IMG/VR virus record: IMGVR_UViG_3300029288_004596
Coordinates: 96,001 to 160,000 of that record
DNA: 64,000 bases
DNA from: a virus
Lineage: Duplodnaviria > Caudoviricetes
Reading direction: 5' to 3' (one strand)
The notes beneath the pieces were generated by a model. The model did no database searches and was not told the DNA's origin. It saw only the letters and a list, made by a program, of their open reading frames with translations. The position numbers and the translations under genes are program-made. This document shows positions 55,872-64,000 of the stretch, piece by piece. Within the stretch, counting starts at the first letter, position 1. Every line of letters starts with the position of its first letter.

Positions 55872-56060
55872 ATGGATTCCTGCGCAATAAGAGAGCATAT
55901 CGCTAGCAGGAAACATCCTGTAGAAGATAGGTACTCTATTCTATTTACAGTTCATCACCTCTATGGATTCTGGATTTCAGAAGCCAGGAGCGTCGCAGAG
56001 ATATTTATGGAAGGTTCTAATAGGGATGGTGGCACTCATTCGAGATGTGAGTATGGATAG
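55872..56060 (+). CDS. RxxxG-family microprotein
   Basis: ends RCEYG. Confidence 0.75.
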   Translation: MDSCAIREHIASRKHPVEDRYSILFTVHHLYGFWISEARSVAEIFMEGSNRDGGTHSRCEYG

Positions 56061-56268
56061 TCTAAGTGAAGAGGTCATGATGATGGATCCTTGTCTTATA
56101 AGAGAGCACCTCATTAAAGGAAGGTTCTTCAGGGAAACCTGGTACTCTATTATGTTTTCAGTTCATGACCTTTATGGCGTCTGGCACACATATGCCAGGA
56201 GTATAATGGAATTCACTGAATATGCCCCTTCCAAGAGAAGCGCCTTCTCAAGGTGCGCATATGGATAG
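56053..56268 (+). CDS. RxxxG-family microprotein
   Basis: ends RCAYG. Confidence 0.75.
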   Translation: MDSLSEEVMMMDPCLIREHLIKGRFFRETWYSIMFSVHDLYGVWHTYARSIMEFTEYAPSKRSAFSRCAYG

Positions 56269-56506
56269 AACTGAACTTGTGGAACTGCTTCAGATTGATT
56301 CCCTTAGATTTACTATTGATAGTCTTGGTTTGTTTGCCCACTACTCTTTAGTGGTTGGCAAGTGGGTCTTTTATTCCCTCTACATAGAGGGGCCCTACAA
56401 GCCTAATCTTCCTAAGAAAGGGAGCGTTGAGGAGTTGATAAGAATAGTAACTATGATAGCCAGGGACTCTGAGAGTAGTTCTATTAGAAGGTGCTACTAT
56501 GGATAA
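56261..56506 (+). CDS. RxxxG-family microprotein (long form)
   Basis: ends RCYYG. Confidence 0.75.
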   Translation: MDRTELVELLQIDSLRFTIDSLGLFAHYSLVVGKWVFYSLYIEGPYKPNLPKKGSVEELIRIVTMIARDSESSSIRRCYYG

Positions 56507-56813
56507 GCCAGCACTAGTGGAGGAGTTTGTTATCAGAGGCAGTAGATCAACCTGCGATTACTCCAGGACTTTCTCTTTCTGGCTGAGCCTGATATCTATC
56601 TATGTGAAGGTGGAGGTCATCAGCCATATGACTAGTTCATCCAGGGATCATGCGTCTCATTTGGAAGTGTATGTAGATCACAGTTTAGATCTAAGTTCCC
56701 ATGTGGGAAAGAGGAAACTAATATCTCCTAAGTCCACTATTCCTCAGATAGTAGACGCTATACTTTTAGGAGTGAATACTGGAGACTCTAGAGTGAGGTG
56801 CAGACGTGGTTGA
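56499..56813 (+). CDS. RxxxG-family protein (long form)
   Basis: ends RCRRG. Confidence 0.75.
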   Translation: MDKPALVEEFVIRGSRSTCDYSRTFSFWLSLISIYVKVEVISHMTSSSRDHASHLEVYVDHSLDLSSHVGKRKLISPKSTIPQIVDAILLGVNTGDSRVRCRRG

Positions 56814-56839
56814 CCGCCTTGCTCTCTTTGTGTTATTAT
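56810..56839 (+). promoter_or_regulatory. Sigma70-type promoter inside the array
   Basis: TTGACC-N18-TATTAT with TG extension. Confidence 0.45.
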
Positions 56840-56937
56840 ATTGTAGGTGCATAAGATGAACTTCTTTCCTATATTAGCATGTGTCCTTGTGGGCATGTCC
56901 ATTATTATGATCCTTGTATACTTCTTAAGTAGGCGCC

Positions 56938-57345
56938 ATGAAAACTTTGCTCGTTATTCTTTTAATGTTGAGTGTCATCCCAGCATATGGGTATGTCATA
57001 GAATTCAAGGTGGAGACCGAGTGCTATAACAATTCTATCCCTATCAGTTCTTTTAGCATGTTCTTATACACCCTGCCTTATGGAGTAGATATCTCCGACA
57101 ACACAGGACTGACGCATGGGAGAATTGATGTTTTATCCATGGACTTGTTATGGAACTCAGTTCTCAGGCTTGATGTTAGCTACAGGGAGGTCATCACTAA
57201 GAACATTGTAATCAATGTCAGAGGAGAATTGAATGAAGAAAACATTGCTAGTCCTGGCGCTGTTGCTGGTCCCTATGATCTGTTCAGCGCAAGTTACAGC
57301 CACATGGGAGAGGGCGGGGTGGACCTTAAAGGCGTCCTACCTTAA
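56938..57345 (+). CDS. Signal-peptide protein
   Basis: MKTLLVILLMLSVIPAYG. Confidence 0.55.
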   Translation: MKTLLVILLMLSVIPAYGYVIEFKVETECYNNSIPISSFSMFLYTLPYGVDISDNTGLTHGRIDVLSMDLLWNSVLRLDVSYREVITKNIVINVRGELNEENIASPGAVAGPYDLFSASYSHMGEGGVDLKGVLP

Positions 57346-57733
57346 TCCCAATCCTGTAGCTGGAAGTTCTATCAGCATTCCATTGGCTGAGACCTATGAG
57401 ATAGATGGGGTTCCAGCCACTACGGCTCCCATAGATATAAACGCTTCTCTCACAGTGGGCTCTTCCACTATTAATAAGCGTTGGTCCACTAAAGGAGCTT
57501 TGACATCTGTGCTTACCTTGGAGGCTCCAGTCACTAACTCAAGTGGAGAAGTTAAACTTTTAACTGATGGAACTCTGAGCGTAAAAGTTATAGCCCCCAA
57601 TGATGGAGTTATACATTCAGTGACATTTAGACTTGTGTATAAAAGTCCATTCATGGCGGCCTGGATGAATCTTATAGTTCAGGCTTATCCCCAGGAAGCG
57701 GCTTTGACCGTGCAGTCCTTGTTCAGTGGATAG
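57233..57733 (+). CDS. Signal-peptide beta-rich protein
   Basis: GAGGAG RBS, MKKTLLVLALLLVPMICSA. Confidence 0.7.
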   Translation: MKKTLLVLALLLVPMICSAQVTATWERAGWTLKASYLNPNPVAGSSISIPLAETYEIDGVPATTAPIDINASLTVGSSTINKRWSTKGALTSVLTLEAPVTNSSGEVKLLTDGTLSVKVIAPNDGVIHSVTFRLVYKSPFMAAWMNLIVQAYPQEAALTVQSLFSG

Positions 57734-61176: not shown

Positions 61177-61330
61177 CAACGGAGATATCTGCTCTCTCAT
61201 AGAATATTATATAGCCACCTATTTGTCTGGGGTGTTTAGAGAACATGCTTCCATCCCATATGTAAGCGTATGGGTTGGTGATTACGCTAAGGAATTAGAT
61301 AATTCTAAGTTGAGGTGTGTCTTTGGGTAG
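61169..61330 (+). CDS. RxxxG-family microprotein
   Basis: TTG start, ends RCVFG. Confidence 0.7.
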   Translation: MGDNGDICSLIEYYIATYLSGVFREHASIPYVSVWVGDYAKELDNSKLRCVFG

Positions 61331-62299
61331 CGATATACCAGCATGGATAGAGTGGTATATAACCACCAGTTCTAACTTTCCTGCCAATGTTCTCCACTGG
61401 TATCTGGATCACTTCCTGAACACAGACTTAGGTCCATATACTAGGAATCAAATAGGATAAGCTATGAACTGTGATATCTGCAGGTCAATAGAATCTTGTA
61501 TACTTTATAAATCAAAAGGTCTAAGTATATCTATGTCTACTCTCTGGTATACTCGTAGGTATGTTGACACCTACCCAGAAAACTTGGATAACTCCAGGTT
61601 GAGGTGCTACCTTGGGTAGTGACTTATCAGAACTCATAGAGTGGTTCAACTCTTCCAGTTACTTTTATCCTAAGAGAGATCACTTCCATAACTACTTAGC
61701 CTATTTCATGGCTACTGAACTAGCTAGCGAGGCGAGGTGTGTATCGGGGTGACTTATGGACTATGATATCTGCGAGATAATAGAGTTCTATGTGGAGTGC
61801 TATAGGCAGCATACCTATGGGCCTAGGACTCTTCTACAGGATGTGCGTTGCCGCATTAGCGACTATCCTGATGAACTGAATATGCCAATGTTAAGGACTA
61901 TGTATGGGTAATGATATATCTGAGTGCATAGAGTGGAGTCTGAGTCTGTTCTGTCCCTGCTCTAGAGAAGGTCTCCTAGTTCATCTAGGGTATCTTTTCC
62001 ATACAGAGCTAAGTGACTTCACAAGGTGTATAATGGGATAATGTATGATATAGCTATCTGGATAGAATACTTTCATAACTATGGTTTCCCTGAGGATATG
62101 TTTCATAAGCTTATCCCAGATGGATGGAGTTTCTTCGACTCCTATTGTAGGTGTGTGGCAGGATGAAGTATGATCTTTGTGTGATACTAGAGTACTCTAA
62201 TACATTCAGGTTCTCCGTCCAGGGACTCTCTTATGCTCTCCATGTGTTGGAGGATGAACTCCACTACAGTCCTGTCTATAGGTGTTATCAGGGGTGACT

Positions 62300-62521
62300 A
62301 TGGATAGACCAGCTATATATGAACAGTGGATAGAGCATGAGGATAATGGTTACTTAATACTTTCTAGTAGGGTTTATCTTCCTTGGGAGGGAGTTCCTAG
62401 GTTGATGACTGACCGTATTATTTTCCCATCTCTTAGAACTCCACCTGGAAGAAGAGAACTTGCTAATAAGATACTAGAGACTCTGGATGGAAATCAGGAA
62501 CTGAGGGTGCACTACGGATGA
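62300..62521 (+). CDS. RxxxG-family protein (long form)
   Basis: ends RVHYG. Confidence 0.7.
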   Translation: MDRPAIYEQWIEHEDNGYLILSSRVYLPWEGVPRLMTDRIIFPSLRTPPGRRELANKILETLDGNQELRVHYG

Positions 62522-63083
62522 AATGGGATGTCTGTGTCATGGTGGAATTCTGTATGGATCATGTGATATTTCCTAGAACTGGCCACTATGTCCTTTGTGT
62601 TTTGGAGGATGAGTATCATTATAATCCTATGTACAGGTGCTACTGGGGGTAATCATGGACATCTGTTGGTTAATAGAGTACTATATATACTATGTGGTTA
62701 GAGCTAATAATTCTCGGTGTCTTAAGTCTATCTTGAGAACCCTGGAGGAGGAAGAGTACTGGTCAGATGATCAGGCTAGGGTCAGTCGTGGATAACTATG
62801 GACATATGTGAACTGATAAATACATACATCACTATCATATCCGACTCTAAGCACGCCCTCTGTTTGAACTTTGTCCTTAGAAACCTAGAGGATGAGAGTT
62901 ACTACTATGAGGATGTGAGGTGTGAGTGGGGGTAGGCTATGGGACTGGATTTGTGTGTGGCAATAGAGTTCCTGGCTAGTCACTCCAGCTATGTTGACCC
63001 TGAGAGATCTTATTCAGAGTATGTGTTCAGTTTTATTGATCCCCGGGTCAGACAGTTTAATAATTCTAGCATGAGGAACGTGA

Positions 63084-63272
63084 ATGGCTAATGAAGACAT
63101 CTGCGAGATAGTGGAGTACTACCTTGACAGTGCTTTTGATATTGATCCATGTGATATAATGTCATGGATAAAGAGTCTTCTAGAAGCTGAATGGACCGAG
63201 AAATCCCCCATATACATAGGGGACAATGTGTGGTCTACTGTGTTGGATGAGTACAGGAATAGAGAAGGATGA
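63084..63272 (+). CDS. RxxxG-family microprotein
   Basis: MANEDICEIVE, ends RNREG. Confidence 0.75.
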   Translation: MANEDICEIVEYYLDSAFDIDPCDIMSWIKSLLEAEWTEKSPIYIGDNVWSTVLDEYRNREG

Positions 63273-63666
63273 ACTTAGATGTCTGTGGGTATATAGAATC
63301 CCTTATAATAATGTCTAATGCTCTTTGGCTACTTTTTCCTATGGACCCTGAGAACATGCTTACCAGATATGATAGTCCAAAGTACAGGTGTAACAACGGA
63401 TGAACCTTGATATTTGCAGACATGTAGAGAGTTATATAAGACTCTGGCCTCACATAGGACTCGATGTCCCTTTTAGGTTAGGTCATATCCTTAGATGTTT
63501 AGCTAGCCCAGGGTACAGGTGCAGGCACGGATGAACGTAGATGTTTGTTATTATATAGAGACTAGTATATCCATGTTGCACTGGCACCATATCAGGTCCT
63601 TGGCCTTCCCTCACGGATTCCAAATATCTGCTGAGAGGATGAATGATAGTAGGTTCAGGTGTGAGA

Positions 63667-63828
63667 ATGGGTAATGATATCTGTGAAATCGTAGAGCACT
63701 TCATCTGGCTCAGGTACAGGAATGGTCCAGAGACATACCGAGCTCCGTTCCTTGTAGCTGTGTCCATAGTCTTAGGGACAGAACATCATCTTGTGGAGGA
63801 TTATGCGTTAAGAAACTTTAGGGGTTAA
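63667..63828 (+). CDS. RxxxG-family microprotein
   Basis: MGNDICEIVE, ends RNFRG. Confidence 0.75.
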   Translation: MGNDICEIVEHFIWLRYRNGPETYRAPFLVAVSIVLGTEHHLVEDYALRNFRG

Positions 63829-64000
63829 GATGTTGCTGGATATCTGTAGGATTAGGGAGAGACATATAATCCAGGTCTCTAGATTTAAGTTCACTTGTTC
63901 AGTTAAATTCATTCTTTGGACTAACTCTGGTAGGTTTCATAACTCTAACTTCAGGGTTTGGAATGGATAGACTATGGATATATGCAAACTTATAGAGAGT

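Follow-up and report, generated by a model that had tools for sequence, protein, structure and literature searches.

The DNA analyzed here is a window of 64,000 nucleotides (nt) that comprises bases 96,001–160,000 of the 216,899-bp linear virus record IMGVR_UViG_3300029288_004596, which is estimated to be 93% complete. Coordinates given without qualification are window positions, while those prefixed L004 and L005 refer to later parts of the same genome (L004:5761 corresponds to genome position 165,761 and L005:9821 to genome position 174,821). The virus is a tailed phage that encodes a portal and a major head protein. Its structural genes occupy the minus strand up to ~109 kb of the genome and are followed by a long plus-strand block of small genes. 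Toward the end of the window, the plus strand carries a tandem array of very short open reading frames (ORFs), whose products share an N-terminal motif, differ widely in their interiors, and end in R-x-x-x-G directly before the stop codon. An earlier note on the window had described these ORFs as a library of at least 44 hypervariable microproteins and regarded them as a candidate for a new system.

Whole-genome ORF parsing assigns 75 members of 41–104 amino acids (aa) to this family. The window contains 43 complete members (55872–63970) and the beginning of a 44th (63974–64000), which is cut by the window end and, with 31 more members, extends the array through L004:1–5761, where the last member ends at genome position 165,761. 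The array spans ~14 kb (13.9 kb), i.e., 6.4% of the record, and is therefore larger than the earlier count of at least 44 had suggested, although that count is correct for the window. The reported lengths were reproduced as well, as were the terminal Gly in 43 of 43 complete window members and the Arg at position −5 in 42 of them, the remaining one carrying Lys (member 58070–58210). On the plus strand, 85 of the 1444 stop-to-stop frames of at least 35 aa end in [RK]xxxG, and 76 of these 85 fall within 150–166 kb of the genome; one of the 76 was dropped as a spurious overlapping frame, which leaves the 75 members. Only 6 of 1239 stop-to-stop frames on the minus strand have such an end, and ~0.5 tails of this form would be expected by chance where 75 are observed.

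The first member is preceded by a Shine-Dalgarno (SD) site, AAGGAG, at 55857–55862 on the plus strand, and the junction listing gives no upstream gene that overlaps it. Members 1–4 (62, 71, 81, and 104 aa; 55872–56813, plus strand) are linked by 8-nt overlaps; member 4 has the tail R-C-R-R-G, and the gene after it does not belong to the family. The single interruption of the array follows at 56814–57725 (912 nt) and is formed by two non-family plus-strand ORFs with N-terminal signal peptides, at 56938–57345 (135 aa) and 57233–57733 (166 aa), neither of which has a Pfam match. Members 5–43 then occupy 57726–63970 on the same strand as 39 genes of 41–91 aa, mostly of the form M-[DG]-x-D-[ILV]-C-x-x-h-E-x-x-I ... 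[RK]-x-x-x-G-stop. The description of the ORFs as back-to-back accordingly holds for a co-oriented chain, but not for an unbroken one.

When aligned, the members follow a common order, in which a first helix of the D-I-C-E-L-V-E-Y-Y-I type is followed by a variable loop with inserts of up to ~50 residues, a second amphipathic helix of the L-x-W-V-x-x-Y-L-E type, and a D-x-Y-R-C-x-x-G end. The family has a median length of 53 aa and a median isoelectric point of 5.0, with a composition of 7.4% Tyr, 2.5% Trp, and 3.9% Cys. An AlphaFold2 (AF2) model built from 55 sequences places helices at residues 5–15 and 18–43 with a predicted local distance difference test (pLDDT) score of 70, and a model from a smaller alignment displays three helices (pLDDT 66). 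The products may be pictured as helical-hairpin mini-proteins, mostly acidic and rich in Tyr and Trp, that combine a conserved hydrophobic core with a variable loop or insert.

All 75 reading frames are intact, and all of them lie on one strand. The closest pair of paralogs shares 61% identity, which is the maximum within the family. Among the 14 closest pairs, the proportion of synonymous differences (pS) is 0.5–1.0 and hence saturated, the proportion of nonsynonymous differences (pN) is 0.24–0.46, and the ratio of nonsynonymous to synonymous substitution rates (dN/dS) is 0.16–0.5. Based on this low maximum identity, the saturated synonymous sites, and the dN/dS values, it is concluded that the members are old protein-coding genes under purifying selection. 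Synonymous codons are mixed at the conserved N-terminal residues (Cys, TGT 32 and TGC 27; Glu, GAG 37 and GAA 19; Asp, GAT 44 and GAC 13), and the motif D-x-C-x-x-h-E-x-x-I is, judged from sequence, demonstrably kept at the protein level. Where indels at the junctions have displaced a start, it has been replaced by a new in-frame ATG. The variable interiors free of frameshifts, to which the earlier note had drawn attention, indeed belong to real genes of one family, as attested by the 75 intact frames, the constant N-terminal motif, and the constant tail.

The opposite view would be that the small ORFs are untranslated or non-functional and that the array is a selfish or structural DNA or RNA repeat that stays open, which would agree with the fact that most members are shorter than the usual gene-calling length. 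Against it stand the 75 open frames on a single strand, the dN/dS of 0.16–0.5 at saturated synonymous sites, the mixed synonymous codons at conserved residues, and the rescue of displaced starts by new in-frame ATGs; moreover, neither a consensus RNA structure at the junctions nor an Rfam match in the region was found. This view is close to refuted and is given next to no credence. On the same two RNA results, an RNA element was rejected as a candidate for the array.

The 74 junctions are dominated by one geometry: 55 are 8-nt overlaps, five are 4-nt overlaps (ATGA), two are 1-nt overlaps, 11 are gaps of 1–36 nt, and one is the 912-nt gap. In the 8-nt type (ATGGNTRR), the next start lies 8 nt before the end of the stop codon within the sequence N-[AGT]-T-G-G-N-T-R-R, and the upstream gene takes its Gly codon from the next gene, whose start contributes its last base and whose second codon (GAT or GGT) contributes its first two. 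The bases AGG(TG) sit 5 nt upstream of the next start in these junctions, and AGGTG is part of the extended SD sequence. A typical case lies at 58888–58905 on the plus strand, where AGG, the Arg codon at −5, opens the SD region and is followed after 7 nt by ATGGATAA, in which the next gene starts at 58898 and the upstream gene ends with its Gly codon and stop at 58900–58905. The 4-nt type is exemplified on the plus strand at 62163–62166 (ATGA), where the upstream tail reads AGG TGT GTG GCA GGA TGA. In a non-overlapping junction at 61443–61466 (plus strand), the tail reads AGG AAT CAA ATA GGA TAA and the next ATG begins 3 nt past the stop; here, the old overlapping ATG has decayed to ATA, and both Arg and Gly are kept.

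Across the 75 members, position −5 is encoded by AGG in 65, AGA in 7, CGG in 1, and the Lys codon AAG in 2, while the terminal Gly is encoded by GGA in 49, GGG in 21, GGC in 3, and GGT in 2; the varied junction geometries, all four Gly codons, and three Arg codons are thus as the earlier note had stated them. The AGG count of 65 out of 75 compares with an AGG share of 36% genome-wide and 44% inside the array, and the genome prefers AGA (58%). Since AGG prevails despite this preference, the third base of the Arg codon is itself selected, which is a signal at the nucleotide level. A stop-anchored nucleotide logo of all members displays AGG at −15 to −13 (99/97/91%), TG at −12/−11 (57/56%), AT at −5/−4 (65/80%), and GG at −3/−2 (100%); AGG starts 15 nt before the stop and is directly followed by TG or GT in 61 of the 75 members. 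The other genes of the phage use the SD words AGGAG, GGAGG, and GAGGT, with canonical SD words enriched 5–7-fold upstream of starts, and the SD words of the array agree with these.

The genome also provides natural controls for the effect of the overlap. The non-family 166-aa gene of the interruption (57233–57733) shares 8 nt with the GTG-GAT start of member 5 and ends in ..S-L-F-S-G. Similarly, an unrelated 75-aa gene at L005:3714–3941, upstream of a stray family member, ends in ..V-M-S-D-G and has GGTGA at the SD position. In both of these unrelated genes, the 8-nt overlap with a family start is accompanied by a terminal Gly, whereas position −5 is not Arg. The stray member itself (L005:3934–4239), whose next gene does not overlap it, ends in T-R-R-Y-V without Gly, and the AGGAGA there is the SD of the next gene. 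The M-D-[KNRS] start of the family is, in effect, a built-in stop for an overlapping upstream reader, which then ends in Gly. Most of the invariance of the tail can be traced to the translation signals of the following gene, its ribosome-binding site and start codon, which are read here in a different frame, and the TG of AGGTG offers the best explanation for Cys at −4.

These features are compatible with a single long polycistronic mRNA that would be read by a ribosome relay, i.e., by translational coupling through termination-reinitiation, in which the last six codons of each gene would at the same time supply the next gene with its ribosome-binding site and start. Such dual coding would yield Arg as AGG, Cys or Val at −4 as the TG or GT of AGGTG/AGGGTG, residue −2 as N-A-T, and Gly as the G of ATG joined to the G that opens the Asp or Gly codon of the next gene. 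In the array, co-directional overlap or short distance between genes is accompanied by an SD motif at the 3′ end of the upstream gene, and SD motifs in that position promote termination-reinitiation (PMC6728339).

It could be argued on these grounds that the R-x-x-x-G tail has no protein role at all and is a footprint of the next ribosome-binding site and start, copied by tandem duplication. AGG is strongly favored over the genome-preferred AGA, the ATGG overlap forces Gly in 55 of the 75 members, unrelated upstream genes with the same overlap also end in Gly, the outlier member without overlap has no Gly, and Cys at −4 is independent of the N-terminal Cys of the same member. The evidence to the contrary comes from the 20 member ends without an 8-nt overlap, namely those at 4-nt and 1-nt overlaps, short gaps, and the 912-nt interruption, together with the last member. 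Among these, codon −2 has retained its start letters only at the chance level (5 of 20), indicating that the rearrangements of these junctions are old. Gly is nevertheless kept in 20 of 20, with freely varying third bases (A10, G7, T2, C1) close to genome usage, and a basic residue (Arg or Lys) at −5 is likewise kept in 20 of 20; AGG is found in 17 of 20 and is followed by TG or GT in 16 of 20. Furthermore, the 10 departures from AGG across the array are all AGA, AAG, or CGG, most of which weaken the SD, whereas a non-basic codon, including the SD-compatible GGG, is never seen. The tail is also kept where no family gene follows, in the member before the 912-nt insertion and in the last member. 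A tail that is purely a footprint is therefore considered unlikely.

Since Gly and Arg/Lys persist in all 20 ends where the start letters have decayed, protein-level selection appears to remain. The tail is read as doubly constrained: mainly as a translation signal of the next gene, anchored on the stop, and to a lesser part through probable protein selection for the basic residue at −5 and the terminal Gly. An Arg one helical turn before the terminal carboxylate, together with the terminal Gly, might serve as a helix C-cap. The earlier contention that the motif is not only a by-product of the ribosome-binding site and start codon is thus upheld by the Gly and Arg/Lys of these 20 ends, and has to be qualified in that most of the invariance is the AGGTG site and the ATGG start.

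A further suggestion had been that the two constant ends form a clasp, often of the Cys-Cys kind. However, the N-terminal Cys of a member and its Cys at −4 are not associated (odds ratio 0.99, p = 1); because the two Cys positions are statistically independent, a Cys-Cys or metal clasp was rejected.

The same note had alternatively seen the free C-terminal Gly as a conjugation or modification handle, as in ubiquitin-like proteins (Ubls), and had proposed a search for E1/ThiF-like enzymes elsewhere in the genome. A ThiF-family E1 of 223 aa (E 2.6e-21) is indeed encoded ~9.8 kb downstream of the array, behind unrelated genes, and it is the only gain for that suggestion. It belongs to an operon outside the window, at L005:9821–13199 (genome 174,821–178,199), which encodes a JAMM-like protein, the E1, a 67-aa protein ending in ..R-I-K-G-N with a weak beta-grasp match, GroES, and a 500-aa protein. 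Other phage-like contigs (L023 and L024) also carry the JAB-E1-Ubl trio with its ..IKGN tail; one such contig has no mini-protein array in the 20 kb examined, and no array lies within 10 kb of the homologous JAB-E1-Ubl loci in other contigs. As the adjacent Ubl has a ..IKGN tail that is conserved in an array-free contig, the E1 has a substrate of its own, and its link with the array is residence in the same genome and nothing beyond.

Activation of the mini-proteins at their free Gly, followed by conjugation or modification by the JAB-E1-Ubl operon of the phage or by a host enzyme, would be in line with the nearby E1 and its JAMM-like, weakly beta-grasp-like, and GroES neighbors. It would also be in line with the tail itself, as a basic residue stands four positions before the terminal Gly in all members, a spacing that the tail of ubiquitin shares. 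This is highly improbable for several reasons. The E1 operon is 9.8 kb off and includes its own adjacent Ubl, so that the genomic association with E1/E2/JAB expected of a Ubl is lacking, and the trio is conserved without an array. The members are predicted to be all-helical in both AF2 models and, at 41–60 residues in most cases, are too short for a beta-grasp fold. The exposed C-terminal Gly is present in 75 of 75 members, but the overlap forces it in 55 and explains most of the signal; in addition, neither a Pup ligase nor a RimK-type ligase was found in the genome. A related proposal, which is very unlikely, treats both constant ends as an address: 75 cores sharing the N-terminal D-x-C-x-x-h-E and the free R-x-x-x-G end would be recognized, loaded, modified, or conjugated by one machine, either the JAB-E1-Ubl system of the phage or a host factor. 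The array would then supply a single pathway with a set of interchangeable tags or warheads.

The statement that no described system matches the array is in agreement with searches of Pfam, PHROGs, PADLOC, PDB sequences, and representative proteins. Pfam, PHROGs, and PADLOC scans of all 75 members returned scattered single chance-level matches only, and a profile search of PDB sequences gave no match at E ≤ 10. Foldseek with the better model found no match in the PDB, and look-alikes in the ESM Atlas offered nothing usable. Searching 1.84 billion representative proteins with a profile brought up members of this genome and nothing else, 8 of the 75 in total; a 16-member profile retrieves other members of the same genome at E 1e-11 to 1e-15. 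No array was detected elsewhere when IMG/VR, JGI metagenome contigs, and GTDB genome contigs were scanned for the pattern, these being weak checks for 46-aa queries, and BLAST searches with the array and with an RNA-polymerase-like gene found no match among cultured phages.

Taken as a whole, the array is best understood, with a confidence somewhat above even, as a lineage-specific and very large tandem expansion of one orphan small-protein family in a ~217-kb tailed phage, whose genes are chained by overlapping signals. The paralogs are adjacent (75 in 13.9 kb, with one interruption), and the copies appear functional, with no broken frames and a dN/dS of 0.16–0.5. As for lineage restriction, no homolog was found in the collections searched, though the best foreign matches of the flanking MoxR gene are themselves only 34–42% identical, which indicates that these collections hold no close relative of the phage. 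The array is thus a large new phage gene family, and a new modification system is not what the evidence shows. The members would probably be made together early in infection. By analogy, they could be a diversified set of host-interaction factors, with a role in takeover or counter-defense.

Two other roles were weighed against such an expansion of host-interaction factors. According to the first, which is decidedly unlikely, the members are packaged and injected internal proteins, in which the N-terminal dozen residues with [LIV]-x-E act as a capsid-targeting and cleavage signal, as in T4 internal proteins, and the variable rest disarms host defenses. The T-even ip locus reportedly combines a short constant N-terminus with a hypervariable remainder, as seen here, and [LIV]-x-E is found at motif positions +2 to +4 in most members. 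However, the genome has neither a T4-type prohead protease (gp21, PF03420; no match at E ≤ 1) nor gp23 (PF07068), and the N-terminal motif is absent from all proteins outside the family. An ordinary helix N-cap and core fits the motif too, and 75 cargo species would be unprecedented.

According to the second, the array is a library of precursors akin to those of ribosomally synthesized and post-translationally modified peptides (RiPPs), in which the N-terminus is a leader and the variable interior a core modified by a shared enzyme, comparable with the prochlorosin precursors. The conserved N-terminal segment with a hypervariable remainder would suit this reading, and genomes with numerous precursor genes are known for some RiPP classes; the phage also has a radical SAM gene (26224–27171), and the members are Cys-rich (3.9%). 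Contrary to this reading, no maturase, protease, or exporter adjoins the array, its neighbors being a DNA methylase, signal-peptide proteins, an ankyrin protein, and a MoxR/VWA pair, while the radical SAM gene lies 30 kb upstream and has a generic domain match only. The members reach 104 aa, with conserved hydrophobic periodicity, predicted helix, and an interior dN/dS below 1; their C-terminus is conserved as well as their N-terminus, and they are acidic and cytoplasmic-looking. A RiPP-like library is accordingly regarded as extremely improbable.

Several points weigh against the tandem-expansion interpretation or against parts of it. No relative turned up in any collection searched, and consequently there are no orthologous arrays to compare. 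The structure models are of moderate confidence (pLDDT 66–70), and the view of Arg and Gly as a helix cap is one that we infer. The host-interaction role is a guess by analogy, and the translation of the small ORFs and their coupling are deduced from their sequences. Finally, AGG is still present in 17 of the 20 ends where the next start is 9–16 nt or more away, which implies either that the SD acts at that distance or that another force keeps the third base.

Jumbo phages are known to carry lineage-specific expansions of small proteins, among them the zinc-ribbon expansion of Bacillus phage G, which has ~35 copies and was called unprecedented in 2021 (Iyer et al. 2021, PMC7824862). In both cases, one small domain is multiplied in a single large phage genome, and the function of the zinc-ribbon family has been discussed as adaptation to conflict or regulation. 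In contrast, the present family has 75 copies in one nearly unbroken tandem chain with start/stop overlaps, and it is helical, with no zinc-ribbon motif and no homolog found. In translationally coupled gene pairs (Huber et al. 2019, PMC6728339), the usual overlap is 4 nt (ATGA) or 1 nt and occurs in pairs, whereas here an overlap of 8 nt recurs 55 times in a 75-gene chain, and the SD and start of this putatively coupled chain impose a recognizable C-terminal peptide motif on the whole family.

T-even ip loci and early takeover modules, such as SPO1 genes 37–60, are likewise clusters of small, fast-evolving phage genes, and the products of the T-even ip loci, which counter host defenses, share a short constant N-terminus while the rest of each protein varies. 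Unlike at the ip loci, there is no T4-type head protease or gp23 here, the copy number is an order of magnitude higher, and a common fold and the C-terminus are also conserved. Virus multigene families can also grow by tandem duplication, as so-called genomic accordions, and tandem amplification of a small counter-defense gene is a documented route of phage adaptation (T4 tifA versus toxIN, bioRxiv 10.1101/2022.04.14.488369). Amplifications of the tifA type are recent and consist of near-identical copies, whereas the closest copies here are 61% identical with saturated synonymous sites, which argues for an old, diversified, and stably kept array. The array resembles Ubls and polyubiquitin genes in its C-terminal Gly, which a basic residue precedes by four positions, and in its head-to-tail arrangement, where the Gly end of a unit abuts the next Met. 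It differs from polyubiquitin in having no beta-grasp fold, separate ORFs in rotating frames, and hypervariable units, in a genome whose E1 has its own Ubl.

Other features of the array region and of its surroundings were recorded along with the family. Consensus scans for promoters and terminators in the array region yielded nothing above shuffled expectation; a strong terminator-like hairpin with a T-run, identified by consensus scan only, lies at 57762–57784 on the plus strand, just past the end of the inserted 166-aa gene and within the 5′ part of member 5. The palindrome AGTACAG(N0-1)CTGTACT occurs genome-wide, with nine copies in the window where none is expected by chance. One copy, at L004:5308–5322 (genome 165,308–165,322), coincides with the only 36-nt intergenic gap of the array, and there is none in the 8 kb of array inside the window. 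Directly after the array, L005:766–3717 encodes an ankyrin-repeat protein, a MoxR-type AAA ATPase, and a DUF2201 metallopeptidase/VWA protein; the best named homologs of this MoxR protein include proteins from Asgard archaeal and Syntrophomonadaceae metagenome-assembled genomes at 37–40% identity. The stray family member mentioned above is 101 aa long, starts with M-D-K-C-A-L-V-E-E, and lies at L005:3934–4239, 3 kb past the array, between the DUF2201/VWA gene and another array; it has no R-x-x-x-G tail.

The genome contains several other tandem arrays, in which 42 plus-strand ORFs end in [YWLFI]-E-E-stop, at window positions 39482–50838 and at L005:4240–7413 and L005:16286–17728. The overlap with the next start mostly takes the form GAATGA in the largest of them (window ~39.5–49.4 kb), where a GGAG-type SD is located in G-[DN] codons ~15 nt before the stop; the E-E end itself is not accounted for by the SD or the start. 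Elsewhere in the window, the gene for the terminase large subunit (6657–9323, minus strand) is split by a LAGLIDADG homing-endonuclease or intein-like insert (Pfam LAGLIDADG_3, 2.9e-08; Hom_end, 4.7e-08).

To our knowledge, the 75 copies represent the largest tandem expansion of one protein family in a phage. The array clearly illustrates that a peptide motif shared by an entire family may look functional and yet be imprinted by the overlap with a ribosome-binding site and start codon, which advises caution in motif-based microprotein discovery. Arrays of this kind are probably under-counted, since most members fall below the usual gene-calling cut-offs and only 8 of the 75 are found in the representative protein library. 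If the members are host-interaction factors, the phage would hold a ready-made library of small helical binders built on one scaffold.

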